Assembly (NCBI GenBank): GCA_964230645.1
Contig: CAXRHT010000002.1
Coordinates: 576,001-640,000 of the forward strand
Origin: Bdellovibrionales bacterium
GTDB taxonomy: Bacteria > Bdellovibrionota > Bdellovibrionia > Bdellovibrionales > JAGQZY01
DNA: 64,000 bases
Direction of reading: 5' to 3'
The notes below the pieces were generated by a model. The model searched no databases. It worked only from the letters and a program-made list of their open reading frames with translations, and was not told the origin of the DNA. Position numbers and translations under genes: made by a program. This document shows positions 25,801-64,000 of the stretch, one piece after another (the stretch's first letter is position 1; the number at the start of each line of letters is the position of its first letter).

Positions 25801-26520
25801 ATGAGAACTCCTCAAAGATTCTGCATTTTTTTAATGGGCTTGTTTTTGCCGATCGTGGCCTCTGGTTTTGACGATACCATCAATCGCTTCAATCTTGACC
25901 TCCTTTACCATTACTCTCGAATCGAACGCTCCACCTTAGTTCAAACTCACAATTTCCAAAGTCGCCAAGGTGGAATGCTGCAATTCGAATACGAGGATGA
26001 AATTGATCTTTTTTGGCGTTGGTATGTTGGAGGAGACTTCACCTTCGCACGCTATGAAGCTTCGGCTACGACTCAATTCTCGCCCCAAGAGCGAATGCCC
26101 TGGCAGGCCTACATTGGAACGGGCTTTCAAATAGGAGCCCTTAAATCTTGGGAAATCTTTTTTGGCGCTGGGGGCTCAAGTGAGCACTACTTCGTAGGCA
26201 CGGGAGTGAACCAATTCGATTTCAGACAAACGGCCTCCCTCCGAGGACATCTGGGTTTGAGTTGGCGTTTTTTAAGTATGACAGGAGCGAGTGCAAAACT
26301 CCTCTTCCGCTACTCTCTTCCTCTGACACAAGTCAATCACAATGGTGCCGAAATGACTTACCGGGGAATTCTTGATGGCAATATCCGTTTACGCCATCGC
26401 TATGATTCTAGCTTTAGTTTTTATGGCGGCATACGATTTGAAGACTATAAACTCATGGATGAGTCCATTACCTATTTCACTAGCCGAGTTTATGCCGGAC
26501 TCGGACTGCATTTTCAGTAA
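25801..26520 (+). CDS. Putative outer-membrane beta-barrel protein
   Basis: Signal peptide, alternating aromatic/polar strands, C-terminal VYAGLGLHFQ beta-signal-like end. Confidence 0.7.
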   Translation: MRTPQRFCIFLMGLFLPIVASGFDDTINRFNLDLLYHYSRIERSTLVQTHNFQSRQGGMLQFEYEDEIDLFWRWYVGGDFTFARYEASATTQFSPQERMPWQAYIGTGFQIGALKSWEIFFGAGGSSEHYFVGTGVNQFDFRQTASLRGHLGLSWRFLSMTGASAKLLFRYSLPLTQVNHNGAEMTYRGILDGNIRLRHRYDSSFSFYGGIRFEDYKLMDESITYFTSRVYAGLGLHFQ

Positions 26521-26573: not shown

Positions 26574-26601
26574 CTAAGTTTATTTCCGAAAAGACCGATA
26601 A
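26574..26601 (+). promoter_or_regulatory. Putative sigma28 (FliA) promoter
   Basis: TAAG-N15-ACCGATAA about 28 nt before the 26630 start; palindrome TGTCT-N7-AGACA just upstream (26543-26559). Confidence 0.6.
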
Positions 26602-26629: not shown

Positions 26630-29482
26630 ATGTGGTCCGTTGGTTGTGAAGAAAAACATTTTATCTTTCTTAGGCGTAGTGTTGTCATTGCGGGCCAGTT
26701 TCTATTATCTCTTATTCTTTTTGCTTGCGGGGCTCCCCCACAACAGATTGATGAAGGCTCAGAAAGTCCAGCGCTCCTGGTCCTCTCTCAAGACTCAACC
26801 ACTCATCTGCCCAATTTAATCAATGGCACCTCTACACTCCACAGTATCACTCTGATTAATATGTCTGCCACAGTCCCTGCGGAAAGACTGGCTCTGAGTG
26901 GTTTACCGGGGCCTCCATTTGCTTTTAGCGGCGGTCAGTTTCCTGGCCTTGGTGGCACCTGTAGTGAAGTTCTTAATCCTGGTAATACCTGCACCATGGA
27001 ATTTGAAATCACACCCACTGTGAGCACAAGCTTTCAAAGCACTTTTCAACTCGACTACTTTGATGGACTTGAAGATGAGAGTTTGGAAATAACACTGAGT
27101 GGACAATCAAGAGACCCCTTTCCTGCTCAATTGGTCCTCAACCCCTCTTCTGATTTTGACTTTGGCCCACTAGCCATCGGAGGTTTTAGAGATCGAGTGA
27201 TCACTTTAAGTAACTCGGGGGAAATGGCAGCGACCTCGATTAATCTAACAGGACTGGCGGCTCCTTTTAGTATCGAAAATAATTCCTGTGGAACTACACT
27301 CGGAGCTGGAGAACAATGTCAGTGGAGAGTGCGATTTTCACCACTCACAGACTCTGTGAGTACTGACTCTTTGAGCTTGAACTTTTTTGATGGTGAACAG
27401 AATCAAAGTGAGGACATCAATTTCCAAGGGGAGGGAAGAATTGCTGGATTTCTAGCGATCAACGAGGGTTCAAGTTTTGACTTTCAAATTTTACTAGCCT
27501 CTCAGAGCTCCCAAAGAACTTTGACTCTCGAAAATACGGGTGGAGGCAATGTCAGTGGAATTTCTGTGGGTTCTATGAGTGCACCATTTGCCATCGTCAG
27601 CAACGATTGTCCCACTGCACTTAGCCCATCTGAGAATTGTGAGGTCGTTGTCTCCTATTCTCCCACCCAGACCCAACTCAGTCTAGAAAACTTGAATGTT
27701 AATTACTTCGATGGATTTGATCCTCAACAAAGCCAAGCTCAGTTTCGTGGCCAAGGATTTAACAACACCCTTAGCCTCAGCTTACTCTCCCCTGCATCAA
27801 CGCCTTCTAATGATGACACTCCGGAGCTTCAGATTGAAAACACCATCGACGGCCTACGCCTCCACCTCTACCAAAGTGCCAGTTGTGGCACACTTAATTC
27901 GAATCAAACTGCGTCGGGTTCACAGTTAACTTTTGAACCCACGATGGCTGAGGGTACTTATCAGTTTCATGTCCGAGCCGAAGACTCTGAGGGGAACTTT
28001 ACAGCTTGCTCCTCTGATTTTGTGGCCTTTGAGTACGACAACACGCCTCCCGCTCCCCCTAATACAATTAGTTTTCTAAGCTCTTATACAAGTCTTTCCA
28101 CTACCACTCCGACGATCTCTTGGTCTACTAGTTCAAGCCCTGATGTCGTGGACTACCAAGTGGCTATTAGCAATAGTTCTGGAGGTGGTAACAGTCATGG
28201 AGGATTCACTTCAAAAGGCAATGTCTTATCGGCCACACAAACGGGGCTTTCTCTAACAGAATGCGAATACTACTACGCGAGTGTACAAACTGAGGATCAC
28301 GTCGGCCTTATTTCATCGAGCTTTTCCGTCTCCCCTACTAGTTTTCGATATGACTCAGCCCCACCGAGTCCTCCTTCTTCACTTAACGAAAGTGGTGATG
28401 CGAGTACCACAAACTCGGCCACAGTTTCATGGAGTGCTGGGAGCGACGCCTGTGGAGTGTCCCACTATCTCGTAGCTATAAGCGAGGACCTCAATGGCAA
28501 CAACATTCTTGATCCGGGAGAGCTAGGTAACATTTTAGGTTTTACGGATGTGGGAAATATTACGACCCACCGTTTCAATAGCCTTTCTTTAAATAACGGA
28601 GTGACCCACTTCACCAGTATTAAAACGGTCGACACCACAGGCAGAGAGTCTTCGACTGTGACCTCTAAGCCATGGATTGCTTATGACCCATCCGAAGAAC
28701 TCCCGAATATGATTGCATGGCTTGACGCTAACGATCTCGCCACCCTTGTAGATAGTAACGGCAATAATGCTTTAAGTGGCTCTTTTAATGGAGAGGTGGC
28801 TTCCTGGCGGGATAAGTCAGACAGTAATACTTATCATCATTTTAATGCCATTGGTAGCTCGACAAGACCCAACTTTACCCCCTTCCAAGTCAACTTTGAT
28901 GGCTCAACTACCGGCCTTACCACTGCCAATCATGATGAGATTAATACCGATACAGTGAGACAAAGAAATTTAACGGTCGCTTTTAGAACCTCAAACGATA
29001 TTTCAAGTCGACAAGTTATTTATGAAGAAGGTGGAAGCATTCGGGGAATGAATATCTATCTTTTTAACAACCGACTCTACTGTGGATTCTATAATGACTC
29101 TGGTGGCAGCAACGGAGACGGCGACGGCAACCAACCTTTTGTCTCCGTATCAAGACCTATCTCAGCAAACACAACCTACTTTGTGACTTGGGTTTTTGAC
29201 TATAGTCACTTTGACGGAGCCGACGGACCTGATGGCGACCTTAAATGCTATGTCAACGGAGTCAATTTCGATTCCACTACGACAACTTCAAGACTTTTTG
29301 CTCATAGCGGAGCGGTTGGCTTAGGAGTCGTTAACAGTCAAACCGTTTTTGAAGATTACAGTGTTGCAAACAGCGGCAACAACTTCCTCGGAAGTCTTTA
29401 CGAAGTGATGCTCTTTAACGATGTGCCCACTGATGCTGATGTTGTAAATGTTCACACCTATCTTGATAATAAATGGAATTAA
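26630..29482 (+). CDS. Surface lipoprotein: 3 choice-of-anchor-D/ASH-type Ig domains, Ig + FN3-like stalk, LamG-like tip
   Basis: Lipobox LILFAC; repeats with FSGGQFPGLGGTC...TC as in the giant protein; stalk homologous to the giant protein C-terminus; WLDANDL...YVNG...EVMLFN...YLDNKW LamG/ConA-like end. Confidence 0.85.
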   Translation: MWSVGCEEKHFIFLRRSVVIAGQFLLSLILFACGAPPQQIDEGSESPALLVLSQDSTTHLPNLINGTSTLHSITLINMSATVPAERLALSGLPGPPFAFSGGQFPGLGGTCSEVLNPGNTCTMEFEITPTVSTSFQSTFQLDYFDGLEDESLEITLSGQSRDPFPAQLVLNPSSDFDFGPLAIGGFRDRVITLSNSGEMAATSINLTGLAAPFSIENNSCGTTLGAGEQCQWRVRFSPLTDSVSTDSLSLNFFDGEQNQSEDINFQGEGRIAGFLAINEGSSFDFQILLASQSSQRTLTLENTGGGNVSGISVGSMSAPFAIVSNDCPTALSPSENCEVVVSYSPTQTQLSLENLNVNYFDGFDPQQSQAQFRGQGFNNTLSLSLLSPASTPSNDDTPELQIENTIDGLRLHLYQSASCGTLNSNQTASGSQLTFEPTMAEGTYQFHVRAEDSEGNFTACSSDFVAFEYDNTPPAPPNTISFLSSYTSLSTTTPTISWSTSSSPDVVDYQVAISNSSGGGNSHGGFTSKGNVLSATQTGLSLTECEYYYASVQTEDHVGLISSSFSVSPTSFRYDSAPPSPPSSLNESGDASTTNSATVSWSAGSDACGVSHYLVAISEDLNGNNILDPGELGNILGFTDVGNITTHRFNSLSLNNGVTHFTSIKTVDTTGRESSTVTSKPWIAYDPSEELPNMIAWLDANDLATLVDSNGNNALSGSFNGEVASWRDKSDSNTYHHFNAIGSSTRPNFTPFQVNFDGSTTGLTTANHDEINTDTVRQRNLTVAFRTSNDISSRQVIYEEGGSIRGMNIYLFNNRLYCGFYNDSGGSNGDGDGNQPFVSVSRPISANTTYFVTWVFDYSHFDGADGPDGDLKCYVNGVNFDSTTTTSRLFAHSGAVGLGVVNSQTVFEDYSVANSGNNFLGSLYEVMLFNDVPTDADVVNVHTYLDNKWN

Positions 29483-29631: not shown

Positions 29632-29658
29632 ACCCTTAAAGCTATGTTTGGGGGTTCT

Positions 29659-30621
29659 ATGAAAATTATTGTTTTTTCACTTCTCATTTTTTTACCGATT
29701 GTTTTTCAAAACTGTTCGGATGCGAACTTCTCTAATTCGGATACCTTCTCAGGAAAACGACAGGCCTCAGAAAGTGATCTCTCATGCTCTGAAGGTTTGT
29801 GTGAAGACATTGGGTCCGACATTATTGATGAGGGCTTAGTCGACCAAGACGATGATACCGACTCAATTAATAGTGGAGACGGCAATAGGGACCACGATGA
29901 AAAATCACCAGGAGAGGGCGACTATGCCAATCGTGACGATCAAGCTCCCCCTTCTTATCCCAATACGGAAGAACCTAATCTACTGGAACTTATTGAACAT
30001 ATTTTTGCAGTTGAAGATTTAAAACCCTTAAGTTCAGAAACATGTGCTGAACTCTTTACAGCTCTAGAGGGTGGGATGAATCTCGATGGACAGAGCTTAA
30101 AAATAAACGCTAACTTCCAACGGGTCATAGTAAAAAATGCCGGTGATGTAAAGATCAACGGAAACACCAGACTTTTAGTGATCGATGGTGCTAAAAATGT
30201 GAAGGTCAGCGGTAACGTTGGGAGCTTGTGTATTCGAGCCCAGCATATCGATGGGATCAATGGTAATGTTGTTGGAGGTCGACAAGCTCACATCATAATT
30301 GGTCAAAACATTGATGGGCAAAAAGCTCTGGCTAAGAATATAAACGGCAATACAAGTGTATCAACCTTGGTTTTGGACATCGATGTTGAAAAGATTAACG
30401 GAAATTCCAATTACTTGAGTATTAAAAACTCTGATGTTGATAAAATTAACGGCAATACTCGTTCATTGCACATAGAGAACGTGACTCTAGAAGAACTAAA
30501 CGGAAATGCTGGCGAACTTGTTCTAAAAAAATCTCTCATCAAAAAGGTCAACGGGAATATCAGAAAACTTGAATATGATGAACAATCCGCTCTTTTGGAA
30601 ATTAACGGTAACATCAACTAA
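29659..30621 (+). CDS. FQNC-type lipoprotein with a C-terminal beta-solenoid (xxINGN repeats)
   Basis: Signal ending VFQNC, acidic linker, about ten (I/V/L)NGN-type motifs, mostly at ~17-aa spacing. Confidence 0.75.
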   Translation: MKIIVFSLLIFLPIVFQNCSDANFSNSDTFSGKRQASESDLSCSEGLCEDIGSDIIDEGLVDQDDDTDSINSGDGNRDHDEKSPGEGDYANRDDQAPPSYPNTEEPNLLELIEHIFAVEDLKPLSSETCAELFTALEGGMNLDGQSLKINANFQRVIVKNAGDVKINGNTRLLVIDGAKNVKVSGNVGSLCIRAQHIDGINGNVVGGRQAHIIIGQNIDGQKALAKNINGNTSVSTLVLDIDVEKINGNSNYLSIKNSDVDKINGNTRSLHIENVTLEELNGNAGELVLKKSLIKKVNGNIRKLEYDEQSALLEINGNIN

Positions 30622-31971
30622 TCAATCACGCTTCCACAAACCGCCAGTGGGACGACCCAACTGGCGTTCTAGAATATGTTTTACGTCCTTTGCCAAAATT
30701 CGCCCGTGAAGGACCTCACCTCCCACATAAACAATGGGACCCAAATGAATACCTAGGTAGTTGGCGTAGTCGTTGTGGTATTGGACCACTTTCTGCATGC
30801 TTTGATTCACTAAGCACTTCTTAATTGGCTCTACTTTTAAATTGAGTTTTTCTAAAGCACCATAAAGCTTATTCTCAGTCTGCTTGTCGAGTGAACCCAG
30901 GGTTAATTGAAAGTAGCGCCAAAATTTTTGTGGATAGGTCTGCCATACACAAAGATGAGCCTGGGTGATCGTATTTTGCAATTTATTGGAAGCTAAAAAA
31001 ACGGGGCGATAATAGAAACTAATCTCTGCACTATTCCCGAGAACTGGAATCATTTTCTCTAGCCACTCCGCTGAGGCCTTCTCCCTAGTCCCTCCAAGAA
31101 AGGTGATCTTCAAAGGACCTTTCCCTAACCTAGGGGTCCACTCCTCCTTGATCTCCAAACTGAAATTAGGCTTTTTTACGTCTACTAAAATTGGGAATTT
31201 GATTAAGTACTTCTCTAAAATATAGTCCAAGGCTCGTTTCTTGCGATCCAGTAAAAGTCGATCACGGGTGGCCCGGCGATTGAAGTCATTGTCTTCCATT
31301 GAATAGGTTTTGAGATAGGTATCAATGTCTTTTTTGGAAATCTTTTTTATCAAACGTTTGTAAACATGGTCTTCCCGAAATTTTTGTTCGGACACCCCTA
31401 GCTTCTGCGCTTCCGCCTTTAATATTTTTTGTTTGAGAATTTTATCGACGGAAGCCAGTTTGAAATGAAAGATCTCTGTGGCGAGCGAACCCCAAATGAA
31501 ATTGTTATAGTCGATATCCTTTTCGTAAATTTTTTGAGAATCGACTTCGGCAATGGCTTCACTCAGGTTGGGGGAGGAAAACTGAATTTTGGTTCCGCCC
31601 TGCAGCTTTACTCCGTACTGGTTGAGCAAGGAAGAGACTGAGCGAGAAACTTTGGAAAAGCGCAGATTTAATGTCTTTACTGGTTTTTTAGCCCTTGAAA
31701 CGAACTGTTGGTAGATCAAGACAAATTGCACATCTTTTTTCTTACTTAAAAAAGCGTCCATGGATGGAGAGAGTGACACTTCCCTCTCGGTGACTTCAAA
31801 AGATCCCGACTTCGCCATGATCCCGTCTGGAAGGTCTGTGAACTTGAAATACACTTCGCCGATCTCGCCTGGTTTTAGAGAGTCTGTTGATTTTTTGGAG
31901 CTCGGTAGAAATATGTAAATCAGACCTAAAACGACGATCAGGCCGATGGCAATGATGGCACTTTTTTTCAT
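30622..31971 (-). CDS. SurA-N-like plus DsbA-like thioredoxin-fold protein lacking CXXC
   Basis: N-terminal TM; AIAEVDSQKIYEKDI...KILKAEAQKLGVS (SurA-N-like); thioredoxin region KITFLGGTREKAS, HLCVW...KKCL, LGIHLGPIVYVGG. Confidence 0.7.
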   Translation of the reverse strand: MKKSAIIAIGLIVVLGLIYIFLPSSKKSTDSLKPGEIGEVYFKFTDLPDGIMAKSGSFEVTEREVSLSPSMDAFLSKKKDVQFVLIYQQFVSRAKKPVKTLNLRFSKVSRSVSSLLNQYGVKLQGGTKIQFSSPNLSEAIAEVDSQKIYEKDIDYNNFIWGSLATEIFHFKLASVDKILKQKILKAEAQKLGVSEQKFREDHVYKRLIKKISKKDIDTYLKTYSMEDNDFNRRATRDRLLLDRKKRALDYILEKYLIKFPILVDVKKPNFSLEIKEEWTPRLGKGPLKITFLGGTREKASAEWLEKMIPVLGNSAEISFYYRPVFLASNKLQNTITQAHLCVWQTYPQKFWRYFQLTLGSLDKQTENKLYGALEKLNLKVEPIKKCLVNQSMQKVVQYHNDYANYLGIHLGPIVYVGGEVLHGRILAKDVKHILERQLGRPTGGLWKRD

Positions 31972-34032: not shown

Positions 34033-34033
34033 C

Positions 34034-36300: not shown

Positions 36301-36610
36301 AGGTCTATGATAAGAAAAAAGAAAGACTCTGGCTATGAAGTTTTCCATAAGCCTCTGGCAAGAGGGAGCTTGTATTATGTGATTTGTGTAAGACTTTTAT
36401 CAAAATTGAGCGAAGGTTTCACTCACCAAGCCTATCGACTCAGTCATCACCCTATAATTTGCTCAACTATTTCAATGATTTATGGATTAATCACTAAAAA
36501 AGCAAAAAATGAAAGAAGTATAGAGTTGCCTGAACACCCCTGTCAGAGCCCTGTTAGCTGCCAAAAAACTATGCTAAAGGCTCCATCAAGCAATAACAAA
36601 GGGAGAAAAT

Positions 36611-37027: not shown

Positions 37028-37048
37028 AATCATTTAAAGTTGTTGATT

Positions 37049-37080: not shown

Positions 37081-37106
37081 TTCATAAAACCCTTATTGGT
37101 AGCTCT

Positions 37107-56000: not shown

Positions 56001-59000
56001 CCTGCACAGTCTCCACCCGCTCCAGGATAAGCGCCACCAGCGAAGGTAAAAGGCGCTGCCAGACCACTTCCAGCCATTCCAAGCGCTGTGGAACCACCGG
56101 TGTTACTCACTGTGAAAGTTTTAGAATTAACGCTACCAGTGGGTCTTGTTCCATAATCATAAGTCCCTGGACCATCACTGAGAGCTAAAATTGCGGGAGC
56201 AATTCCTGTCCCCTGCACGTCTCTGTCACTAGTGACTGTTCCAGCTCCATTATTATATTGAATGCTAATTGTATCTGTTAAAAGACCGGTCGAAGTGGGC
56301 GCAAATTCCACATCGATATCACAGGTGGCTCCGGCTCCAAGAGTTGTCACACAGGTTCCCGCTGTTCCAGGAAAACTTCCACCGGTAAAGGCGTAAGGAG
56401 CGGCTAGACCAATCTCGGTAATGGCTGTAGCGGCGACACCACCACTATTTGTTAGTGTAAAGACGTGATTACTGCTCGCATTTTGAGTCACAGAACCATA
56501 ATCATGGGGATCACTTTCAGAAATGCCAATTAAGGCAGGATTCGCCCCAGTTCCTGTTAAATCATGATTTAAAGTTTGGGCTGTCGCTCCATTGTCATAA
56601 ACAATTTCAATGGTATCGGTAAGTGTTCCTACCGCAGTTGGATTGTAAGAGACTTCGATATCACAACTACTTCCAGCTGCGAGTGTGGCCGTACAAGTTC
56701 CATTGGTACCAGGAAAACTTGCCGCTGTGTAATCAAAAGGAAGAGCAAGCCCCGCGCCATCGGCAATCGAAATAGCAGGCACAGCCCCTGTGTTTGTTAT
56801 TGTTAATACTCTTACCGAAGTACTACCAAGAGCTTTCGTTCCAAAGTCATAAGGATCGGCCCCACCGACAACTAACGTAGCCGGAGTACCTGCTGTTCCT
56901 TGTAAGGCTCTTGTGGCTGCCTGTAATGCAGCACCATCACTATAATCAAAAGTCAGAGTGCTCGAATAAACTCCGTTAGAACCAGGAGTAAATTCTACGA
57001 CGACATTACAACTGCTACCTGCGGCAAGTGTGCCTCCACAGTTTCCTCCGGTTCCTGGATAACCACCACCGAGAAAATCAAAAGGAGCAGTAAGTGTAGA
57101 TTCTGTAATTCCAGTGGCAGTACTTCCTCCACCGTTTGTCAGCGTAAAAGTGTGGGTGCTAGTTCCACCACTAGCAATGAGTCCATAGTTATAAGTACCT
57201 GTCTCACTCACTGTGATCATAGCTGGAGTGATTCCTGTCCCAAGGATATCTCTTGTAGCCGTTTGACCTGTGACTCCATCATTAAAATTAATTTCAACGC
57301 TATCGTTACTGGCAACCGCCGATGTTGGTGCAAAGGTCACTTGAATCAAACAGCTATCACCGTTATTGATTGTGGCTCCACAATCACCACCCGTGCCAGG
57401 AAAAGATCCTCCAGTGAAACTAAAAGGAGCCACAAGTCCACTGCCCCCCACCGTCGTCGCTGGAACAGCACCTGTGTTGGTCACTGTAAAAATCTTTGCA
57501 GCTGTCGCTCCTTGAGTGACATTGCCAAAATCATAAGTGGGTCCATCAGTGATGGTTAGTGTCGCTGGCGAAGCTCCAGTCCCTTGTAGAGTTCTTGCTT
57601 CAGTAACCGTCGTAGCCCCATTAAAATACTCAATGGTGATGGTGCCATTAGCAAGACCAGTCGCTACAGGCGAATAGGCCACCTCGATATTACAAGAGGC
57701 CGAAGGTGCTAAGCTCGCCGTACATGTTCCACTAGCTCCTGGGAATCCGGCTCCAGTAAAATCAAAAGGCGCTGCTAGAGTTAACTCATTGATAGCTGTG
57801 GCTTGAAAGCCTCCGCCATTGGTAATTGTAAAAACATGATTTCTTGTGGCGCCAGTCGCTAGAGTTCCGTAATCGTAAGGACTCATTTCACTGATGGTCA
57901 GAGAAGCGGGAGTGACAGCCACACCAGCAACATCTCTTAGTGTATTCTGAGGATTCACTCCATCGTTATAAGAAATATCAATTGTGTCTGTGTCCGAAAC
58001 ACTAACGACACTAGGAGAGTACTGAATTTCAATATCACAGCTGCTCCCTGCTGCTAAGGTTCCGGAACAATCTCCTGCTGTACCAGGAAAAGCGCCACCA
58101 ACGAAAGTAAAAGGAGCACCAAGTCCCACCTCACTAATAGCTGAGGCCTGAAAACCTCCGCCGTTTGTGATAGTGAAAACATGAGCCCCTGTGCTCCCAG
58201 TGGCTAGTGTTCCAAAGTTATAAGGATCTGTTTCAGTGATACTGAGATTGGCAGGAGTGACTGAGGTTCCTTCTACATTTCTTGTGCTCTGCTGAGCCGC
58301 GGCTCCATCGTTGTAATCTATTAGTACTGTATCTGTGTCTAAACCATTAGCTGCGACCGGAGCATACTCGACAACGATATTACAGTTATCACCTGCAGCC
58401 AGTGTTCCGGTACAGTCTCCCGAAGTTCCAGGATAACTGCTGCCTTCAAAACGAAAAGGGGCGGCTAATCCACTTCCTGCAAGACCAGTGGCCGGAGCGC
58501 CTCCGGTGTTTGAAACGACAAAAGTTTTTTGAATCACGCGACCCGTAGGATGAGTTCCAAAGTTATAAGGGTCTAACTCTGAAATAGAAATCACTGCCGG
58601 GCTCAAACCGGTTCCCTGGATGTTCTGAGTGCTACTCACAACACTGACGCCATTGTTATAAGCTAAATCAATTGTATCTGTGAGAGCTCCAGTGGCCGCT
58701 GGCGCAAACTCGATCACAAGGTCACAGGAACCACCGCTGGTAATTGCCACTCCACAGGTTCCACCCGTTCCTGGATAACTTCCACCCACATAGCGGAAAT
58801 TTCCAGAGACTCCTGTCTCATTAAGTCCTGTGGCTGCCACTCCGCCGGTGTTGGAAACTGTGAAGGTGTTAGCCCTTGTGGCGCCTACAGCGACACTGCC
58901 ATAATCGTAGGGATCTGCCGCTGTAATATCTAATAAAGCCGGTGCGGCCGCTGAACCTTCAATATCATGAGTTAATGTTTGAGCCGTGGCGCCATCATTG

Positions 59001-62000
59001 TATGTGATTTCAAGGGTGTCAGAAGAGGCCCCGATGGAGGAGGGATTAAACTGCACTTCCACGTCACAGCTTGCACTGGCAGAAAGACTCGCTCCACAAG
59101 TCCCACCTGTTCCAGGATAACCCGCTCCAGTAAAAGCGTAAGGAGCCGCCAGTCCTAACCCATCAGCAAGGCTTGTGGCAGAAACAGCCCCTGTGTTGGT
59201 AATACTTAAAGTAACAACCGAAGTGCTACCATTGGCTTTTGTTCCAAAATTGTAAGGATCAGGGCCAGCGACAGTTAAAAGTGCCGGAGCTCCTGCGGTT
59301 CCCTGCACATCGCGAACAGAGCTTTGAACTGCAGCTCCATCGTTATAACTCAGCTCAATCGAGTCCGAATAAACACCCGTTCCCACAGGAGAGAAAGCCA
59401 CCACGATATCACAAGAAGCTCCTGCAGCGAGGCTCGCTCCACAGTCCCCACCTGTACCCGGAAAACCACCGCCGGCAAAAGCAAATGGAGGATTCAGACC
59501 CACTTCACTTAAGACCGTGGCCGAACTTCCACCGGCATTGTTTAAGGTAAATGTATGATTAAGAGTTCCACCATCAGCAATAAGACCATAATCATAAGGA
59601 TCGGTCTCACTGATCATAATAGTTGCCGGTGTGATACCCGTTCCGATCACATCACGAGTCACGGTCTGTCCACTGACACCATCGTTAAAGTTGATTTCAA
59701 TACTATCGTTACTAGCAATCGGTGAGGTTGGTGCAAAGCTTACTTGAATCAGGCAACTGGCTCCATTGGCAATGCTTGTTGTACAGTCCCCACCGGTTCC
59801 AGGAAAAGAGCCACCGGTAAAACTAAACGGAGCCACGAGTCCACTACCACCAACAGTTGTAGCGGGAACAGCCCCAGTGTTGGTCACTGTAAAAATTCTT
59901 GAACGACTGGCACCTTGGGTCACGTTTCCAAAATCATAGGTGGGTCCATCAGTGATGGTCAGTGTGGCCGGAGAGGCTCCTGTTCCTTGTAAGGTACGCG
60001 CTTCTGTCACAGTGGCTGCACCATTATTGTAAGCTATGGTAATGGTTCCAGTTGCAAGGCCCGTTGATACGGGAGAATAGGCCACTTCAATATCACAAGA
60101 AGCGGCTGGAGCCAGTGTCGCCGTACAAGTTCCACTCGCACCGGGAAAACCCGCTCCGGTAAAATCAAAAGGGGCGGCAAGAGTGGTCTCGTTAATGCTT
60201 GATGCTTGAAAGCCCCCACCATTAGTAATGGTAAAGGTGTGTGTTCTCACGCCACCTGTCGCTAGCGTTCCGTAATCATAGGGATCTGATTCTGTGATTG
60301 AAAGACTGGCTGGAGCCACTGCCACACCGGTCACATTTCTCAATTCATTTTGGGTGTTCACACCGTCAAAATAAGAAATATCTATCGAGTCGTTGTCCGC
60401 AGCACTGACCACACTGGGAGAGTACTGAATTTCGATATCACAACTGCTCCCCGGAGCAAGGTTACCACTACAGTCCCCGCCCACACCCGGGTAAGCCCCA
60501 CCGGTGAAAGAGTAAGGAGCCGCAAGCCCCACTTCGCTAATGGAAGAAGCGACAAAGCCTCCCCCGTTCGTTATTGTAAAAACATGGGTTCTTGCACTAC
60601 CGGTTGCCAGAGTTCCAAAGCTATAAGGATCGGTTTCAGTAATGCTTAAGTTAGCCGGTGTTACTGCCACACCCTGAACATCTCTTGATGAGATTTGAGG
60701 AGCCGCACCATCGTTATAGTTAATTTCAATACTGTCTGTATGAGAAGGATTGGCTGCAATCGGTGCGTATTCGACGACTATATTACAAGATGCACCCACA
60801 GCAAGGGTCGCTCCACAATCCCCAGAGGCCCCTGGATAAGTGCCCCCTTCAAAGCGAAAAGGGGCTGCTAGTCCACCACCAGCAATTCCGGTGGCGAGAG
60901 TTCCTCCACTATTAGTAATTACAAAGGTGTGAGGTTCCACATGGCCTGTTGGTCTTGTTCCAAAATCGTAAGGATCAATCTCTGAAATATCGAGGACCGC
61001 AGGAGTGAGTCCGGTTCCTTGAATGTCTCGGGTTAGACTTTGCGTGTTCACTCCGTCAAAATAATTAAAGTCGATCGTATCTGTAAAAACACCGGACGCC
61101 ACGGGTGCAAATTGAAAAACCACATCACAACTTGATCCGGAGTTAAGGGTAGCAGTACAGGTCCCCCCGGTTCCAGGAAAGCTTCCACCAGCAAAACCAA
61201 AAGGAGCGTTGATTCCCACCTCATTGATCACCGTGGCTGCAACCCCTCCCGTGTTTGCAATCGTAAAAGTATGATTGCGGCTAGCAGTAACAGTCACGGT
61301 TCCAAAATCATAGGGGTCCATCTCTGTAATTGTTAAGTTTGCAGGATTGGAGGCTGTCCCTTCAATATCTCGAAGAGAAGTTTGTGCTCCTGTTCCATCA
61401 TTGTAATCAATCTCAATTGTGTCCGTACTGTTAACAGCTGCTGTTGGCGAGTAAACGATCTCAATACTACAACTCGCTAGAGCGTTGAGACTGGCTCCAC
61501 AGTCCCCACCTGTTCCAGGATAGGTTCCACCGACATAACTAAATGGCGCAGCAAGGCCCGCTCCATCAGCGACCGAAGTTGCAGTTACCCCACCGCTGTT
61601 GGTGATGGTGAAGATATGAGGTGTGTTTGAACCCACGGCTTGGTTTCCGTAATCGTAAGGATCGGTTTCACTGATTTGTAAATTCGCTGGAGTAGTGGCC
61701 GTTCCTTGGATGTCACGGTCGGAAGTTACAACACTGGTTCCATTGTTGTAACTAAAGCTAATTGTGTCAGCATTCACCCCTGTGGCTGTCGGAGCGTATT
61801 CGATAACAATATCACAACTCGCACCCACACCCACAGTGGCTCCACAGTCTCCTCCGGTTCCAGGGTAGGATCCGCCAAGATATCTGAAAGGAGCCGCGAT
61901 TCCTGATTCTACAACCGCTGTGGCAGCGACGCCTCCGGAGTTTGTCACCGTAAAACTATGGGAAACCAAACCACCGTTGGCAATAAGGCCAAAATTATAA

Positions 62001-64000
62001 GGATTCGTCTCAGAGATTGTGAGAAGAGCTGGGGCAGCACCAACACCTGTAATATCACGAGAGCTTGAAACGTTACTAGCGCCATTGAAATAATTAATAT
62101 CAATGGTCTCGTTGAAGGTTCCGGAAGTGGCTGGGTTAAAGCTTACAGCTATATCACAAGAGCTAGCAGGAGCTAATGTGGCTCCGCAATCCCCACTTAT
62201 TCCTGGGTAAGTTCCCCCTTCAAAACTGTAAGGAGCACTAATTCCACTACCCGCCATTAAAGTGGCAGCCACTCCGCCCCCGTTATTTAGAGTGAACACT
62301 CTTACACTACTTGCCCCTTGAGCAAGAGTTCCATAATCATAAAGAGGACCATCGGTAATAGAAATATTAGCAGGGGCTGCACCCACCCCTGTAACTCCTC
62401 GAGTGGAGGTTACTACAGATGAGCCGTCATTGTATTGAATGGTAATGGTACTTGTATGAGTACCAGTTGAAACGGGAGCAAATTGAACTTCGATATTACA
62501 AGTTCCACCATTAGCTAAAGTGCTTGAACAGTCACCACCAGCACCAGGAAAGGCTCCCCCTGTAAAGGAATAAGGAGCGCTTAAAGTGGTTTCAGCAATG
62601 GCTGTGGCCGGAACATCACCCGTGTTACCTAATTGAAAAATTTGGGTCACAACTCCAGTGGTAGCAATGGTTCCAAAATCGTATGGCTCAGCCTCAGTGA
62701 TTGTAATCACGGCCGGATTCACTGCACTACCGATAACAGGTCTTGTGCTTGAAGTGGCAATTACTCCGTTGGAGTAATTAATTTCAATAGTGCTTGAATC
62801 CGAAGCTGTCACTGTCGGTGAGTATTGCACTTCAATTGTACAGTTACTTCCAGCAGCGAGTGTTGCGGCACAGTTTCCACCCGCCCCTGGATAACCCGCA
62901 CCACTAAATTGAAAAGGCAAAGCCAAACTTCCCGCATCCGCAAGGGCTGAGGCTTCAAAACCTCCGGTATTAGAGACTGTGAAGGTATGAAAATTATCAG
63001 AGTTCGTCGCTACGGTTCCGTAATTAAACGTCGGACCGTCAGAAATTTCTAAGAGGGCTGGAGCCACTCCCTCACCGCTTAAATCTCGGGTGGCCGTTTG
63101 CACATTGGCCCCATCGTCATACGAAATCTCAAGGGTGTCATCGTGAAGGGCCACTGTCGCAGGAGCATATTCAACACCCACGGTACAGGAGCTTCCCGGA
63201 GCGAGTGTAGCCGCACAATCGCCACCCCCTGGATAAGAACCACCCACAAACTGATAAGGAGGGGCTAATCCACCACCAGCCATGAGGCTGGCACCAAAAG
63301 CACCGGTATTAGTAATCGTAAATGTTTGGGTCCTAAGGGCTCCTGTTGGAACCTGACCAAAATTAAAAGTCGGTGCGAGATCAATTGTTAAAAGAGCTGG
63401 ACTGACCGAAGTTCCCTCAATATCGCGAAGAGTGGAAACCACACTGGCTCCATCGTCGTACTGTATTTCAATAGTATCGGCCGTGTTCCCCGTTGCGGTT
63501 GGAGCATAATTCACCACAATACTACAAGTGGCACTGACTGCGAGACTAGTACCACAGTTTCCACCCGTTCCCGGATAAGTACCGCCCGCATAGGAAAAGG
63601 GAGCCGCAAGACCCGCAAGATCAGTGATATTATTTGCTGGAACATCACCATTATTCACAATGTTAAAGGTGTGATTGGTCACACTTCCTTCAGCAACCGT
63701 TCCGTAATCAAAACTAGGAGCTTCCGAAATTTCAAGCAGAGCCGGATTAACACCTTCTCCTGTTACATCACGGTCGGCTTGCTGTGCTGCCACGCCGTCA
63801 TTGTAATCAATTAAAATGGTGTCGTTATGGACTGCCAGTGTGTTGGGTGAGTATGTGACGACAATATTACAAGTATTGGTCGGCGCTAATGTTGCTCCAC
63901 AATCCCCGCCCGTTCCAGGATAAGAACCCCCCGCGTAATCAAAGGGAGGCGCAAGCCCCACCCCATTCATACTACTGGCTACCACACCACCGGTGTTGGT
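38093..64000 (-). CDS. Giant surface protein/adhesin (>8,630 aa, 5' end outside the window): 68+ choice-of-anchor-D/ASH-type Ig repeats, Ig/FN3 stalk, C-terminal IgGFc-binding-like tip
   Basis: Uninterrupted frame to the window edge (TNTGGV precedes the called start); ~114-115-aa repeats PAxLxIxExDPYDFG...FxGGxYPGxGGxC...C...YNDG...RDxxG; FN3-like WTDPG...YKLFYR...VTGLTPSTDYEF; the tip assignment is tentative. Confidence 0.95.
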   Translation of the reverse strand, partial: TNTGGVVASSMNGVGLAPPFDYAGGSYPGTGGDCGATLAPTNTCNIVVTYSPNTLAVHNDTILIDYNDGVAAQQADRDVTGEGVNPALLEISEAPSFDYGTVAEGSVTNHTFNIVNNGDVPANNITDLAGLAAPFSYAGGTYPGTGGNCGTSLAVSATCSIVVNYAPTATGNTADTIEIQYDDGASVVSTLRDIEGTSVSPALLTIDLAPTFNFGQVPTGALRTQTFTITNTGAFGASLMAGGGLAPPYQFVGGSYPGGGDCAATLAPGSSCTVGVEYAPATVALHDDTLEISYDDGANVQTATRDLSGEGVAPALLEISDGPTFNYGTVATNSDNFHTFTVSNTGGFEASALADAGSLALPFQFSGAGYPGAGGNCAATLAAGSNCTIEVQYSPTVTASDSSTIEINYSNGVIATSSTRPVIGSAVNPAVITITEAEPYDFGTIATTGVVTQIFQLGNTGDVPATAIAETTLSAPYSFTGGAFPGAGGDCSSTLANGGTCNIEVQFAPVSTGTHTSTITIQYNDGSSVVTSTRGVTGVGAAPANISITDGPLYDYGTLAQGASSVRVFTLNNGGGVAATLMAGSGISAPYSFEGGTYPGISGDCGATLAPASSCDIAVSFNPATSGTFNETIDINYFNGASNVSSSRDITGVGAAPALLTISETNPYNFGLIANGGLVSHSFTVTNSGGVAATAVVESGIAAPFRYLGGSYPGTGGDCGATVGVGASCDIVIEYAPTATGVNADTISFSYNNGTSVVTSDRDIQGTATTPANLQISETDPYDYGNQAVGSNTPHIFTITNSGGVTATSVADGAGLAAPFSYVGGTYPGTGGDCGASLNALASCSIEIVYSPTAAVNSTDTIEIDYNDGTGAQTSLRDIEGTASNPANLTITEMDPYDFGTVTVTASRNHTFTIANTGGVAATVINEVGINAPFGFAGGSFPGTGGTCTATLNSGSSCDVVFQFAPVASGVFTDTIDFNYFDGVNTQSLTRDIQGTGLTPAVLDISEIDPYDFGTRPTGHVEPHTFVITNSGGTLATGIAGGGLAAPFRFEGGTYPGASGDCGATLAVGASCNIVVEYAPIAANPSHTDSIEINYNDGAAPQISSRDVQGVAVTPANLSITETDPYSFGTLATGSARTHVFTITNGGGFVASSISEVGLAAPYSFTGGAYPGVGGDCSGNLAPGSSCDIEIQYSPSVVSAADNDSIDISYFDGVNTQNELRNVTGVAVAPASLSITESDPYDYGTLATGGVRTHTFTITNGGGFQASSINETTLAAPFDFTGAGFPGASGTCTATLAPAASCDIEVAYSPVSTGLATGTITIAYNNGAATVTEARTLQGTGASPATLTITDGPTYDFGNVTQGASRSRIFTVTNTGAVPATTVGGSGLVAPFSFTGGSFPGTGGDCTTSIANGASCLIQVSFAPTSPIASNDSIEINFNDGVSGQTVTRDVIGTGITPATIMISETDPYDYGLIADGGTLNHTFTLNNAGGSSATVLSEVGLNPPFAFAGGGFPGTGGDCGASLAAGASCDIVVAFSPVGTGVYSDSIELSYNDGAAVQSSVRDVQGTAGAPALLTVAGPDPYNFGTKANGSTSVVTLSITNTGAVSATSLADGLGLAAPYAFTGAGYPGTGGTCGASLSASASCDVEVQFNPSSIGASSDTLEITYNDGATAQTLTHDIEGSAAAPALLDITAADPYDYGSVAVGATRANTFTVSNTGGVAATGLNETGVSGNFRYVGGSYPGTGGTCGVAITSGGSCDLVIEFAPAATGALTDTIDLAYNNGVSVVSSTQNIQGTGLSPAVISISELDPYNFGTHPTGRVIQKTFVVSNTGGAPATGLAGSGLAAPFRFEGSSYPGTSGDCTGTLAAGDNCNIVVEYAPVAANGLDTDTVLIDYNDGAAAQQSTRNVEGTSVTPANLSITETDPYNFGTLATGSTGAHVFTITNGGGFQASAISEVGLGAPFTFVGGAFPGTAGDCSGTLAAGSSCDIEIQYSPSVVSVSDTDTIDISYNDGVNPQNTLRDVAGVAVTPASLTISEMSPYDYGTLATGATRNHVFTITNGGGFQATAINELTLAAPFDFTGAGFPGASGTCTASLAPSASCNIEVAYSPVATGLANGTITIEYFNGATTVTEARTLQGTGASPATLTITDGPTYDFGNVTQGATAAKIFTVTNTGAVPATTVGGSGLVAPFSFTGGSFPGTGGDCGATINNGDSCLIQVTFAPTSAVASNDSVEINFNDGVTGQTATRDILGTGITPAMITVSETGTYNYGLIASGGTSTHTFTLTNGGGSTATGITESTLTAPFDFLGGGYPGTGGNCGGTLAAGSSCNVVVEFTPGSNGVYSSTLTFDYSDGAALQAATRALQGTAGTPATLVVGGADPYDFGTKALGSTSVRVLTITNTGAVPAISIADGAGLALPFDYTAASFPGTNGTCTATLAAGSSCDIEVSYNPTAVGTLTDTIEIVYDNGATAQTLNHDLTGTGANPALIGISESDPHDYGSVTQNASSNHVFTLTNSGGVAATAITEIGLAAPYAFTGGSFPGTAGTCVTTLGAGATCDIDVEFAPTSTGLLTDTISIQYNNGAGTVTSDRDVQGTGIAPAILALSDGPGTYDYGTRPTGSVNSKTFTVSNTGGSTALGMAGSGLAAPFTFAGGAYPGAGGDCAGTLASGSSCLIVVQYNPISVSASDTDTILIDYNDGSAAQTATRDLSGIAVSPANLTITETDPYNFGTLSTGSTGTHIFTITNGGGFQASAISEVGLSAPFTFTSGSFPGAGGDCSATLAAGSSCDIEIQYSPSVVSASDTDSINISYNDGVNPQNTLRDVAGVAVTPASISITESDPYDYGTLATGASRSHVFTLTNGGGFQASAISEISLSAPFDFTGAGFPGTSGTCTTTLAPAASCDIEVAYSPVSTGVASGTITIQYNNGTTTVSEARTLQGTGAAPATLTITDGPTYDFGNVTQGATASKVFTLTNTGAVPATTVGGSGLVAPFSFTGGSFPGTGGDCGTTINNGDSCLIQVTFAPTTAVTSNDTIDINFNDGVTSQTSSRDVMGTGITPALISISESGTYDYGLIASGGTITHTFTLTNNGGSTATGITETLLSSPFDFLGGGFPGTGGSCGGTLAAAASCNVVVEFAPGSNGVYSSTMSFDYNDGAAPQSVARPLQGTAGTPATLAVGGPDPYDFGTKANGSTSFVILNITNSGAVAATSMADGLGLGAPYAFTGAGYPGTNGTCTATLAAGSSCDVEVQYNPSGVGATTDTVTVTYNDGASAQTLSHDIQGTAAAPALLGISEGNPYDYGNVAVGSSTTHTFTVSNTGGVPATGLSEIGISGNFQYVGGTYPGTGGTCGVAITNGGSCDLVIEFAPSGTGVLTDTIDLAYNNGVSVVNTTRNLQGTGLSPAVISISELDPYNFGTHPTGRVIQKIFVVSNTGGAPATGLAGSGLAAPFRFEGSSYPGTSGDCAGTLPSGDSCNIVVEYAPVAANGLDTDTVLIDYNDGASSQQSTRDIEGTSVTPANLSITETDPYNFGTLATGASNAHVFTISNGGGFQASAISEVGLNAPYTFTGGAFPGTAGDCSGTLAAGSSCDIEIQYAPGSVSAADDDTINISYNNGVVVQNTLRDITGVAVAPADLEITETDPYDYGTLATGASRPHVFTISNAGSFTASAISEVTLSAPFDFTGAGFPGSNGNCTATLAPAASCDIEVAFSPTVTGAQSATIDIQYFNGASTVTSSRDIQGTGAAPATITITESDPYDFGSVTQGATLTHIFTLNNTGAVAATTIGGSGLTAPFSFTGGSFPGTGGDCTATLASGGSCDIAVTFAPTAPVASSSQIDINYNNGASLTTVSRDVVGTGITPAQLTISETNPFDFGLVATGGVNTHAFTIDNIGDSPATAISEVGLNAPFNFLGGSFPGTGGNCGSSLGAGVSCSIVVAFSPVATGPFPDSIQIDYNDGAAPQSVLRQVQGTGGTPANLVVGGADPYDFGTKANGSTTVATLTITNSGSLPATGLSDAAGLASPFDYTGAAYPGITGTCAATLAAGSNCTVQIQFTPTGAGLATDILAIDYDDGAAAQTLNHDVQGTGATPAVIAISESDPHDYGNITQGASSNHIFTLTNNGNVPATAISEISLGAPFTFTGGSFPGTAGTCTTTLAVSGTCDLDVEFAPLGTGLLTGTLEIQYNNGATVVTSARDLQGTGLAPASLTISGGPGTFDYGTRPTGSVNPQTFVVSNGGGSTATGIAGSGLAAPYSFQGGSYPGVGGNCGATLAASSSCNIVVEYNPVSVSAADTDTILIDYNDGASPQTSTRDLTAVAVAPASLTITETDPYNFGTLATGASRTHIFTVSNGGGFQASAMVESGLGAPYGYAGGSYPGTGGDCAATLAAGSSCDIEVEYAPGVVSPAHDDTISFAYNDGVNPQTATRDVTGVAVSPASITISETGTYDMGTVAVGGNTTHIFTLTNGGGFTASALTEIALSGDFDFTGGAYPGDSGTCAVTLAPSASCDVEIIFAPTSTGLASSSLTIQYANGANTVNTARPLQGTGAAPATITITETDTYDFGSVTVGANLSHIFTLNNTGAVAATAVGGSGLVSPFSFTGGSFPGAGGDCTATIPAGGSCDIEVTFAPVSAAASNSSIDINFNDGAVPQTSSRLISGTGIAPAMITISGTDPYDYGLIANGGTATQTFTLTNSGASSATGIVESGLAAPFDFLGGGFPGTGGDCLGTLGAGASCDIVVEFAPGSINPFSDTIEIDYNNGAVPATALRDIQGSGGAPAVLAWDGGATYDYLIKAVGSSTPHVFTITNTGAVTATSMADGGGLSSPYTFTGGAYPGTGGDCGATLAAGATCLVDVSFEPAATGTFTDTALVSFNSGATAQSSGQDLTGEGASPASLTISETNPYDYGDVAITASLNHIFTVTNGGGVAATTMAETGIGAPYAFTGGTYPGDSGTCGTTLSSGGTCTLDISFTPTATGVQPDVIELDYYNGAIAQTALRQIQGRGVAPANLTITESDPYNYTTVPTGSSNLHTFTITNTGGIVATAMGGSGLAAPYSFAGGTYPGAGGDCGVTLGVGANCDIVVEYAPVAPSTPTHDDTIQIDYNNGVTAANVTRDVIGTAVLPALLEISESDPYNYGTLATGSSSTHIFTISNTGDFQASAMIESGVGAPFIYAGGAFPGTGGNCSTTLNAGDSCTVEVQYAPSATGTQVGAISFAYSDGVNPQTVDRVIQGTGVNPASLTIGGADPYDYGTVATSSSEPNVFTVSNGGNFQASSISISGLGGDFDFVGGTFPGTGGTCTTTLNPASNCTLVVEFGPSATGLSTTTMQIDYNDGATVQNTTVDLQGIGSSPAQITISETEPYDYGNVTVGVGVNHTFTLSNTGGVPATGIAGGGVVSPFNFLGGTFPGTGGTCTGTLNNGDSCTIIVRYAPAAVGTLFDEIDITYNDGAVAQTSSRGIQGTGITPANITISESNPYDFGLVANGGTKSYAFTLTNSGSTTATSLSETGLGAPYGYLGGPYPGTGGDCGVTLGAGANCTIVVEFAPLTSGAKLDTIEFGYNDGVTTQTATRDLQGTGGAPATLTITESDPYNYGTLAQGSSTDHTFIISNGGAVQATGMVDAGSMSAPFVFKGSAYPGTGGTCGATLASGGNCTIVVSFEPAIAGPQADTIDITYNNGVNTQSLTRDVEGTAAAPASLAISESDPYNFGTLATGATRTHTFSVNNSGGVVAGSLAEVSLSAPFRFMGGSYPGTGGTCSTSLSAGASCNLVIEYAPIATGSHADTITMSYFNGVATQNATRDIEGEGVSPANLTISGADPYSFGTRPTGAVRTATYTISNGGGFQATSIAGSGLAAPYSFVGGSYPGTGGNCGATLNSGASCDIVIEYAPVAVSGADNDTLLIDYNDGVVAQQSSKDLQAVAVAPATLTITESDPYNFGTLATGATNTHTFTIENTGGFQATSLLENGIAAPYRYFGGTYPGTGGNCAATLAAGATCDIVIEYAPGVPGTNNDTITMNYFDGVNSQASNRDITGTGVNPANLTITESDPYDYGSLAVGATRAHTFTVTNGGNFGASSIAEVGLGLPFRFVGGSFPGAGGTCTGTLAPSASCDLVVEFAPTGTGLATSTISLSYNNGAATVASDRDIQGTGAAAAFITISEVDPYDYGSVTVNATKSYSFTLNNTGGVTATGMGGSGLASPFNFLGGSYPGTGGSCGASLPNGSNCTVVVEFAPTSAVGSNDTIEINYFNGAASATSTRDVQGTGISPAVIGISESDPYSYGLIANGGTRSHTFTLTNTGASPATAMSEVGLAAPFNFLGGGYPGTGGDCGSTLAAGGGTCTIVVQYSPSAIGANSDSIEISYNNGATVQTSIRDIQGSAGAPATLIFSGVSPYDFGTRATGSTTEQTFTVTNGGAVTASAMADAGTMAAPFSFKGGSYPGVGGSCGPTLASGADCTIVVNFEPSINGPQSDNIELNFNNGAILTSASHPVEGEGTDPASLSISESNPFDFGNVTVSASNNHIFTVTNGGGVTATALAEVGLGGSFGFVGGTYPGTTGTCGATLSSGGSCTLNVQFAPAGTGLSTDTISMSYNNGAITQNANRDIQGTGVAAANLTISETDPYNFGTLPVGGAETHIFTVQNTGGSQATSVSGLGLAVPYSFLGGSYPGTGGTCGTTINPAANCTVVVEYAPLSLSGSDDDSVQIDYNNGVAAASVERDVTGVAVSPATLTITESDPYNFGTLATGATADHIFTITNTGDFQATSMSIIGLASPYRFLGGSYPGTGGDCAATLASGASCDIAIEYAPTLVSAADDETINVQYDNGAVVTNSQRDVTGVAVSPAQITISESDPYSFGDVAVGASTTHTFTLTNGGGFTASSIAEVGLGLPFRFLGGSFPGTGGNCTASLAPASGCTVVIEFAPSTTGIQPDTINFQYNNGATVVNAERDVQGTGSAAATLTISETDPFDYGPVTVNGFRLKTFNITNTGGVSATSVGGSGLVAPFSFNGGSFPGTGGTCGATVASADSCTVVVRFAPTSAGNIADTLEINYFDGAAATTSSRDIEGTGINPAVITISETGTYDFGLIAAGGRRTHTFTLTNTGDSAASSLSESGLAAPFDFLGAGYPGTGGTCGATLAAGGGTCTIVVEYTPATNGVDTGSIQIDYVDGAVAQSATRDLQGTAGSPATLDFVDAPSYNYGTQPNGITVEYTFTITNNGAVTATAIADAATMNAPFEFKGGTYPGVGGDCAGTLASTASCDVVVTYSPIASGPQNDQIELNFNNGAIVTNTTLDIQGTGAAPALLAISESDPYNFGSFAVGGGANHVFTVSNTGGVPATAISEVGLAAPFTYVGGSYPGTGGTCAGSLANGSSCDIAVRYAPSSTGTDSDLIEFSYNNGVTATTSTRQVQGSGVPAAILTISGANPEDFGNVTVGNNDVISLTVTNTGGLTATSMAGGGLVAPFTFEGGSYPGTTGTCTTSLTAGSNCTISLRFQPTMTGLASDIVEIDYNDGVVVQTANMSIQGTGQNPATLTISNGPTYDFGSVATNSTNEQVFTVQYSGDDAATSVTGAGLAAPYTFKGGTYPGTGGDCGAVITTDCNIVVVFNPTTAGTFNDSIEIDYNDGAGPQQATRDLTGISNDPATLSISESDPYNYGGVVQNGSAVHIFTITNGGSFAATSISELTLSAPFGFSGGSFPGDNGDCTATLGPGLDCDIEVEFAPTSTGVIADTITISYNNGVTTQSVARDIQGTGNSPATLTISDGPTYDFGVTLSGSLKTKTFVVNNTGQTDASGISGSGLIAPYDFNGGSFPGTGGNCAGTLTAGSSCNIVVSYQPSSEQVDGDTILIDYNDGVLAQQVTRPITGEGVNQPDPPTTFAFVNPVSSPSPDTTPLIRVSGGAVASGATVRLYANSSCTGGTEIGTQISSGTNVDVQVTSALGLGITALYADLTDANGFNSNCSTAFVNYEVDQTAPNAATTIAHATVWHDSQSTSPNVTWTTSTSLDVDFQEIGISTSPLGGNDAGGWKSLPFPGDNQADSDQLTGLGLARCTPYYATIRTVDNAGNNSVLAVAGVPFEVDIDDPGAPGGGTIVLNDFATGTQSRIATWAASTDDCDLDRYEISIGTSAGATDAMGWLDIGLVTTYRPVDGVDGASFTLANGVDYFVNVRAIDESGKISTVSSSPSFRTQPPNPVDDLLLAERASTEISMIWTDPGSSGSPVSDYKLFYRLDGAGAWTRAPVDPVTDATSGTVTGLTPSTDYEFMVVASNGTDAPASNIIDAKTGPNTPFFDPTLFTAINLGGADNDCRVMAAFDGTAIEVTRGGGTLLTDNLDAGDVRDWNCQQFDQVQADGPIYAMGNLNNRMHIGFQDRGMSGKNFLVTGTRSTPHRLSVFAFENSTVEFYRDGVLRRTEVMNAGDSYTYSDGQDGAFEVVSDALIAMHFSSNYRDDGQIVPPAAEKLIGFPSRTGYISPSGTGIVNMYRSDSTSYTQSATAGNIFSVPDTGAEYSGLVMKAEAPFVMGGNSNADSNGLSSAAWVSPALFRENFIVAGDMDWVAIAAENPIDVEVVNLGTGAVEETITMTGTSDFNIFRHYWGPNNGMNEGRLLRAVNPGDKFIMWYQPGPRTGYQEQEDETLSFGFDN

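Follow-up and report, generated by a model that had tools for sequence, protein, structure and literature searches.

A giant lipoprotein and its DsbA-derived, often redox-dead partner form a conserved gene module in Bdellovibrionales

The route by which lipid-anchored proteins reach the Gram-negative cell surface is only partly known, and InvL, an adhesin exported by the T2SS, measures ∼500 aa as far as our sources describe it. The window analyzed here, a stretch of 64,000 nucleotides from a Bdellovibrionales bacterium, holds most of the gene for a member of a family of lipoproteins of roughly 6,600-11,200 residues with ∼80 disulfides, and next to it a candidate helper, related to DsbA, that has dropped catalysis. 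By what route could such a long chain be exported, and what is the role of a redox-dead DsbA? The pair makes both questions testable. An earlier note on this DNA had proposed a candidate system of five parts: long and short adhesins, a beta-barrel, a beta-solenoid lipoprotein, and two DsbA-like paralogues. The genes that it named are all present where it placed them (Table 1).

Table 1. Features of the locus, in window coordinates.
Feature	Position	Strand	Remarks
Small outer-membrane beta-barrel-like gene	25783..26520	+	239 aa from the likely start at 25801
Sigma-28 (FliA)-like promoter motif before the short adhesin	26574..26600	+	also in 4/5 orthologous loci
Short adhesin-like lipoprotein	26630..29482	+	950 aa; LFA-C33; 3 NF012200 repeats; neck in common with the giant
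INGN-repeat lipoprotein (candidate solenoid)	29644..30621	+	325 aa; bystander
Second CXXC-less paralogue	30622..31971	-	449 aa; uncleaved N-terminal signal anchor
tcdA	32485-33276	-	housekeeping; marks the locus in the genus
182-aa ORF between tcdA and tatD		+	
tatD	34034-34777	-	housekeeping; marks the locus in the genus
CXXC-less DsbA-fold protein	34915..36348	-	likely start 36300, 461 aa; large helical N-region, possible lipobox
Two ORFs separating pseudo-DsbA from giant: 138 aa, secreted, and 329 aa, trypsin-like	36611..38096	+	
Giant adhesin-like lipoprotein gene	38093..64000	-	3′ 8,635 of 9,514 codons within the window
Giant C-terminal tip, IgGFc-binding-like (PF17517)	38096..39163	-	26.7 bits vs cut-off 25.6
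Giant neck, Big_13-like and FN3 domains, between stalk and tip	39164..40411	-	

The reading frame of the giant continues beyond the window for 2.6 kb, up to a TTG start codon at the window-equivalent position 66637, and encodes 9,514 aa in total. Its N-terminus is a lipoprotein signal with, by motif, the lipobox FLVS-C31, and it shows the basic n-region, the hydrophobic h-region and the conserved lipobox Cys of Sec/SPII lipoproteins. Motif and alignment place L[VLT][SAG]C-[IV]A in 13/13 giant N-termini read, the sequence upstream of the window having been retrieved, and this bears out the earlier proposal that the giants are N-anchored and tip-out. The stalk consists of 76 choice-of-anchor D Ig repeats, 69 of them in the window. 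Every repeat has one Cys pair, as had been noticed from the window, giving 76 pairs in the full protein; 73 of the 76 are C-x9-C, and the spacing is 112-116 aa. The 159 Cys of the giant are thus the lipobox Cys, the 76 pairs and 6 in the tail. The repeat belongs to the curated NCBIfam family NF012200 (choice-of-anchor D; HYDIN/VesB/ASH Ig in Pfam), whose cut-off of 45 bits most of the giant's repeats exceed; the Cys pair characterizes every repeat here. The stalk is a 7-domain super-repeat, with maxima of inter-repeat identity at lags 7, 14 and 21 (0.58, 0.57 and 0.53, vs ∼0.45 elsewhere). The neck is homologous to that of the short adhesin (E 2e-30). Giants have stalk and neck in common and differ in their tips; the IgGFc-binding-like tip also occurs on the giants of the relatives G003 and G011.

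Several smaller genes accompany the giants. A secreted protein of 140-160 aa with two conserved Cys (L002:4807-5262 and relatives; 38 representatives, no family match) follows 6/6 giants with a tip of the second-giant type described below, and none of the 7 whose tip is IgGFc- or LamG-type. As its presence tracks the tip type, it may serve one kind of tip as a cap or chaperone. Copies of giant tips also stand alone as small lipoproteins near the matching giant (L024:7808-8704, L028:5913-6875 and L062:13034-13864), which may record past exchanges of tips. Both giants of this genome are flanked by small barrels (L005:5565-6790 and L002:6702-7229); one matches DUF3575, and the 182-aa one also precedes the giants of G003 and G008. 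The DUF3575-like barrel was rejected as a part of the system, since beyond the two giants here it was seen in one relative's locus only. A 430-aa lipoprotein (G000:C1:980505-981797, L004) has two C-terminal choice-of-anchor D repeats and no DsbA-like or barrel neighbor. The stop of the giant overlaps that of the convergent trypsin-like gene (window 38093-38096). MAT-like genes are also present in this genome.

Three known export routes were ruled out for the giant. A T1SS RTX adhesin is contradicted by the signal peptide and by the absence of GGxGxD nonapeptides (0 in the whole protein). A type V autotransporter does not fit either: autotransporter models have no match in the last 1000 aa, which consist of Ig, FN3 and tip domains, and the N-terminus is lipobox plus repeat. 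The same 1000 aa contain no match to an NCBIfam or Pfam sorting domain, which excludes a T9SS cargo. The view that the giant has no RTX motifs, autotransporter barrel or sorting tail, and is exported other than by T1SS/T5aSS, therefore holds.

The 461-aa pseudo-DsbA gene follows the giant on its strand at a distance of 1.7 kb. Behind a second giant of 9,628 aa in the same genome (C3:491410-520296) come a 151-aa secreted gene and, 549 bp past the giant's stop, a third CXXC-less paralogue. For the comparison with relatives, loci were fetched around DsbA-like matches irrespective of giants, and 73 DsbA-like proteins were aligned: 24 CXXC-less, 32 giant-type with CXXC, and 17 housekeeping. Linkage was defined as a distance of ≤10 kb from a large repeat ORF. 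For 17 of the 24 CXXC-less copies, the end of a repeat-protein gene lies ≤9 kb upstream, a count that includes three repeat-protein tail fragments flagged by hand, and all 17 are on the 3′ side. As to the remaining dead copies, for one (G006) the tail was found on a neighboring stretch, and six are ≤5 kb from a contig end. Linkage was found for 18/32 CXXC giant-type copies, six of them at 37-117 bp, and for 1/17 housekeeping copies, whose available flanks span only 6-7 kb. Pseudo-DsbAs are thus conserved downstream neighbors of giants, which supports their association in the earlier note, with the qualification that the partner is often CXXC-active (32/56 giant-type copies). Large proteins ending in RCC1 repeats (L058:2-2914, L061:10664-13567) have the same CXXC partner ∼116 bp downstream.

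Co-occurrence points the same way. In the order sample of 327 genomes, whose members, like those of the family sample of 26, are in part kin and not independent, 28 match the giant N-terminal profile and 32 match the long partner strongly (only 5-11 candidates scored per genome, with queries built from this same family); the overlap is 21, vs ∼2.7 expected by chance. The link is not obligate, as the long partner is missing from 7/28 repeat-bearing genomes. G015, G268 and G270 (96-99% complete) have repeat frames of >2,000 aa and only ordinary DsbA matches, and the 3′ flank of the G270 giant is intact yet without the long partner. Of the two giants in G016, one is without a partner within 15 kb downstream, and in G265 the gap between giant and partner is ∼15 kb. 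Such exceptions, together with the fact that tcdA and tatD are likewise conserved neighbors in one genus, could be accommodated if envelope genes had simply gathered in a variable island and been co-inherited with no functional tie. We consider this very unlikely: the linkage is found again and again, in four families whose flanking genes differ, the partner is nearly always 3′ of the giant, sometimes at ≤120 bp, and the arrangement exists twice independently in this genome. The giant lipoprotein and its DsbA-derived partner, often redox-dead, are a real conserved module.

The partner itself retains the DsbA fold. The model of the pseudo-DsbA (pLDDT 85.8) has a C-terminal domain that matches ScsC, DsbA2 and BdbD at Z 18-19 in a structure search (ScsC, Z 19.1, rmsd 2.4, 167 aligned; BdbD, Z 18.6), and the thioredoxin fold, helical insertion and cis-Pro loop of the DsbA/ScsC class are all there; the CXXC motif is not. 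In 15 dead copies, neither the proline at the cis-Pro position nor the helical Cys pair varies. At the CXXC site the three dead paralogues of this genome have HKNERS, TREKAS and SISSPN, and a fourth paralogue elsewhere (C2:451821) bears CXXC as CEDC. The two paralogues of the window are 30% identical. Judged by its active site, the CXXC-less partner is not a functional DsbA. The trees require ≥3 changes by starred branches and suggest three CXXC losses; a single origin was not rejected by the AU test (p 0.145, with four long or partial rows dropped). An uncleaved signal anchor was seen in ∼16/24 dead copies and a lipoprotein signal in 16-17/17 housekeeping copies, so that, by this crude motif, about two thirds of the dead copies have exchanged the lipobox for an anchor. 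A lipobox on the 449-aa paralogue was rejected, its N-terminus being such an anchor. The SurA-N domain that the earlier note had assigned to both window paralogues was not detected on them by profile search; similarity to it is clear only in housekeeping relatives (above cut-off in 1/10, weak in 3 more), with one marginal case among 28 giant-type copies (E 0.03). In the fold search, the DsbA domain filled the match list and no match to the helical N-region was isolated.

Outside the order, a 350-aa lipoprotein with CPFC is almost universal (279/401 phylum genomes match; 17 were read), and we therefore read the housekeeping oxidase as mostly lost or diverged in Bdellovibrionales. In our reading, this CPFC-derived oxidase was kept, with an extra N-domain, beside the giants, and was there duplicated and inactivated. 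A CXXC copy is also kept in 17/20 genomes with a dead copy. The CXXC-less proteins might instead be structural or regulatory partners, either a periplasmic base on which the giant is held or a subunit directing the CXXC paralogue to it. Their membrane anchors and retained fold would suit such a role, a dead copy often has a live one next to it (G016, G019, G023, G025, G121, G243), and the role of TraF, a comparable protein, is called unclear in passages of PMC11315126. Descent from a near-universal CPFC oxidoreductase argues against it, as does the observation that CXXC copies hold the same place behind giants in other families, and we regard this alternative as rather unlikely.

The beta-barrel next to the short adhesin had been proposed as a translocon, part of a single export system with the solenoid, the pseudo-DsbAs and both adhesins. 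The 239-aa barrel has ∼10 amphipathic strands by eye and no Pfam or NCBIfam match; its ESM Atlas neighbors at 0.96-0.97 include OpcA/OMP_b-brl clusters, none of its 30 database homologues is annotated, and no paralogue was found in the genome. Slam proteins have a SlipAM barrel with an N-terminal TPR region. A search of the barrel for the Slam model PF04575 gave no match, but the control also gave none, and the barrel is only 239 aa. It lies directly 5′ of the short-adhesin orthologue in 6/6 barrel-carrying genomes, and all parts are ≤13 kb apart here, as one system would have it. Close barrel homologues are, however, confined to one genus (6/26 family genomes), and none was found in the giant-bearing G011, G015, G016, G017, G019 and G022-G025. 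Since most giant-bearing genomes are without it, the barrel is not the giant's exporter. In G002, G003 and G008 the barrel and short adhesin sit on another contig than the giant, and G009, where no DsbA partner was found, has the unit as well. Nor is the solenoid conserved: the INGN-repeat lipoprotein has no conserved orthologue at the locus and two weak, unlinked matches in 25 relatives. A single export system is thus most improbable, and its barrel-translocon version is largely refuted for the giant. The co-occurrence predicted with repeat proteins was found for the long DsbA-like partner (21/28 genomes) and failed for the barrel.

We read the barrel and short adhesin as a separate two-gene unit, placed beside the giant locus in this genome. 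The short adhesin has orthologues in five relatives (∼50-55% identical) and a LamG-like tip (PF13385, a match below the cut-off). Orthologues of the 449-aa paralogue sit after tcdA in G002, G003, G006, G008 and G010, and in G002, G003 and G008 no barrel/short-adhesin pair stands behind this tcdA-side copy. The position of the pair here looks inserted, because relatives carry it away from the giant/tcdA locus. An AP2-domain gene (window 25056-25640) closely follows the pseudo-DsbA in G003 and G006, and marks the apparent insertion point of the barrel/short-adhesin/solenoid block here. The 138-aa secreted and 329-aa trypsin-like ORFs were not seen in relatives' loci.

A different candidate apparatus is a cassette of a TPR lipoprotein, MotA, MotB, a membrane-anchored FliG-like protein and a small barrel, found in 46/327 genomes in a search that scored 3 candidates per genome. 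If it were a dedicated non-flagellar rotary machine, it could export or move the giants with the DsbA-like partner as one of its parts. Among 30 fetched cassette loci (L056-L099 range), 26 have a G/A/S/T-rich Ig-like ORF of ≥950 aa within 8 kb; five have the cassette directly after a giant and its DsbA partner, four more hold both nearby, and in G119, G123 and G132 CXXC-less DsbA genes lie inside the cassette. It is also present in this genome (G000:C3:577031-583019, L076), where, however, it adjoins a different lipoprotein of 3,120 aa, and the second giant is 57 kb away. Nine family genomes with the repeat (G003, G005, G011, G015, G016, G019, G022, G023, G024) yielded no cassette among the 3 candidates scored in each. 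FliG is the top, though weak, fold match of the FliG-like protein (E 0.036), from a poor model (pLDDT 52.6), and a PDB sequence search with its alignment gave no match. We hold the rotary machine to be unlikely, and would put at the same low level an undescribed biogenesis pathway for titin-sized lipoprotein filaments, in which a housekeeping disulfide oxidase was recruited to giants and repeatedly made into an inner-membrane pseudoenzyme that feeds a MotAB/FliG-like, ion-driven machine for export or motion. A FecR-like gene (label by eye) also occurs in the cassette loci. The 3,120-aa lipoprotein (G000:C3:567660-577022) is cysteine-poor and has another Ig type; a sigma-28-like -10 box lies 12 bases before its called start.

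The host genome encodes GspD (523 bits vs cut-off 351), GspN (71 bits vs cut-off 50; missed by Pfam T2SSN alone) and two LolA genes. No gsp genes were recognized beside giants in the ORF lists of the loci read. From the lipobox Cys on, the giant reads C-I-A-D-V-N-E-P; the definition of the G/S- or N/D-rich sorting motif expected after the Cys of lipoprotein adhesins of the InvL/PulA kind comes from Acinetobacter. By analogy, the T2SS would be the most economical route for the giant, because GspD and GspN are present and InvL needs both. A known secretion signal or apparatus at the giant's 5′ end had been named as evidence against an undescribed system, and the Sec/SPII signal there and the T2SS with GspN provide it in part. 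As for regulation, a sigma-28-like site, TCAAG-N14-GCCGATAA, lies ∼100-120 bp before the giant, and the strict pattern matches 7/2448 upstream regions. A relaxed pattern, tuned after seeing matches, occurs before 6/13 giants and 5/6 short adhesins vs 75/2448 background ORFs, and before 0/24 dead paralogues and 0/6 barrels. The attack-phase consensus of B. bacteriovorus is given as TTAAG-N16-CCGATA in the consulted part of PMC3627812.

The giant of the module is likely a surface adhesin and its partner likely a dedicated folding helper. We give an even chance to the full explanation, in which the giant is a lipid-anchored surface adhesin, the CXXC-less DsbAs are its dedicated, membrane-tethered folding chaperones, and export is by the T2SS. 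The giant, with its sigma-28-like motif upstream, its lipobox, repeats and tip, would be expressed in the attack phase, translocated by Sec and lipidated. Its chain would emerge over a long time, and CXXC enzymes would form the 76 local C-x9-C bridges; candidates are the CEDC paralogue and a VKOR-DsbA-like fusion with CPHC (G000:C2:64760-65929; label by eye), the latter a likely source of periplasmic oxidizing power. Meanwhile the CXXC-less paralogue may hold or fold repeats, using its helical N-region and the DsbA groove that it has kept, a division of labor that would resemble the TraF/TrbB split and PpiD. In the least certain step, the folded giant would cross the outer membrane via the T2SS and GspN. 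An Ig domain is ∼4 nm long, and the giant, if it stays lipid-anchored, would form a stalk of roughly 300 nm.

Among the closest known systems is InvL of Acinetobacter baumannii, described in passages of PMC9245377 and PMC12802150 as a 492-aa Ig-repeat lipoprotein adhesin that requires GspD and GspN. As far as these sources go, the giant resembles InvL and PulA in its N-terminal lipid anchor, in having no barrel of its own and in a host with GspD and GspN, and InvL also in its Ig-like stalk with a binding tip. It differs in size, InvL being nineteen times smaller than 9,514 aa, and in its choice-of-anchor D rather than invasin-like Ig domains, and the passages mention no pseudo-DsbA neighbor of InvL. 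By this analogy, the giant probably works as a lipoprotein adhesin of the InvL type that has its own cognate helper. CpaB and LipH, from partial descriptions, are client-specific cognate T2SS chaperones, as the pseudo-DsbA may be for the giant. TraF and TrbB of the F plasmid, in the portions of PMC11315126 consulted, likewise pair a CXXC-less thioredoxin-fold protein with a CXXC paralogue at an envelope-filament locus, and the redox-dead TraF is not seen alone there, to be compared with the 17/20 genomes above. The partner here, by contrast, belongs to the DsbA/ScsC class, has a membrane anchor and a large helical N-region, and its client would be one giant polypeptide rather than a pilus machine. 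PpiD, according to part of PMC2956729, is a membrane-anchored periplasmic helper that combines a SurA-like module with a catalytic domain without activity, which is a parvulin there and DsbA here.

Full-text searches of the main texts of open-access papers found no description of such giants or of their link with a pseudo-DsbA. The repeats are those of the choice-of-anchor D family (HYDIN/VesB/CFA65 Ig, ASH); what differs is their arrangement as 76-78 tandem copies on a lipoprotein. The Omnitrophota giants, in the text at hand (bioRxiv 10.1101/2023.11.21.568195), are likewise encoded by giant genes of suspected predators and proposed for adhesion, with T2SS-like conserved genes and a rotamase nearby; unlike the giants here they have TM regions and SecA-like domains, and 'lipoprotein' and 'DsbA' give 0 matches in that text. 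From the same lineage come the MAT fibers of Bdellovibrio, also variable-tip surface fibers, which the consulted part of PMC13689555 describes as trimeric with an N-terminus of their own, whereas the proteins here are Ig-repeat lipoproteins whose N-terminus differs by inspection. With a promoter that is likely of the attack phase, the giants would be a second class of variable-tip surface fibers in predatory bacteria, besides the MAT fibers.
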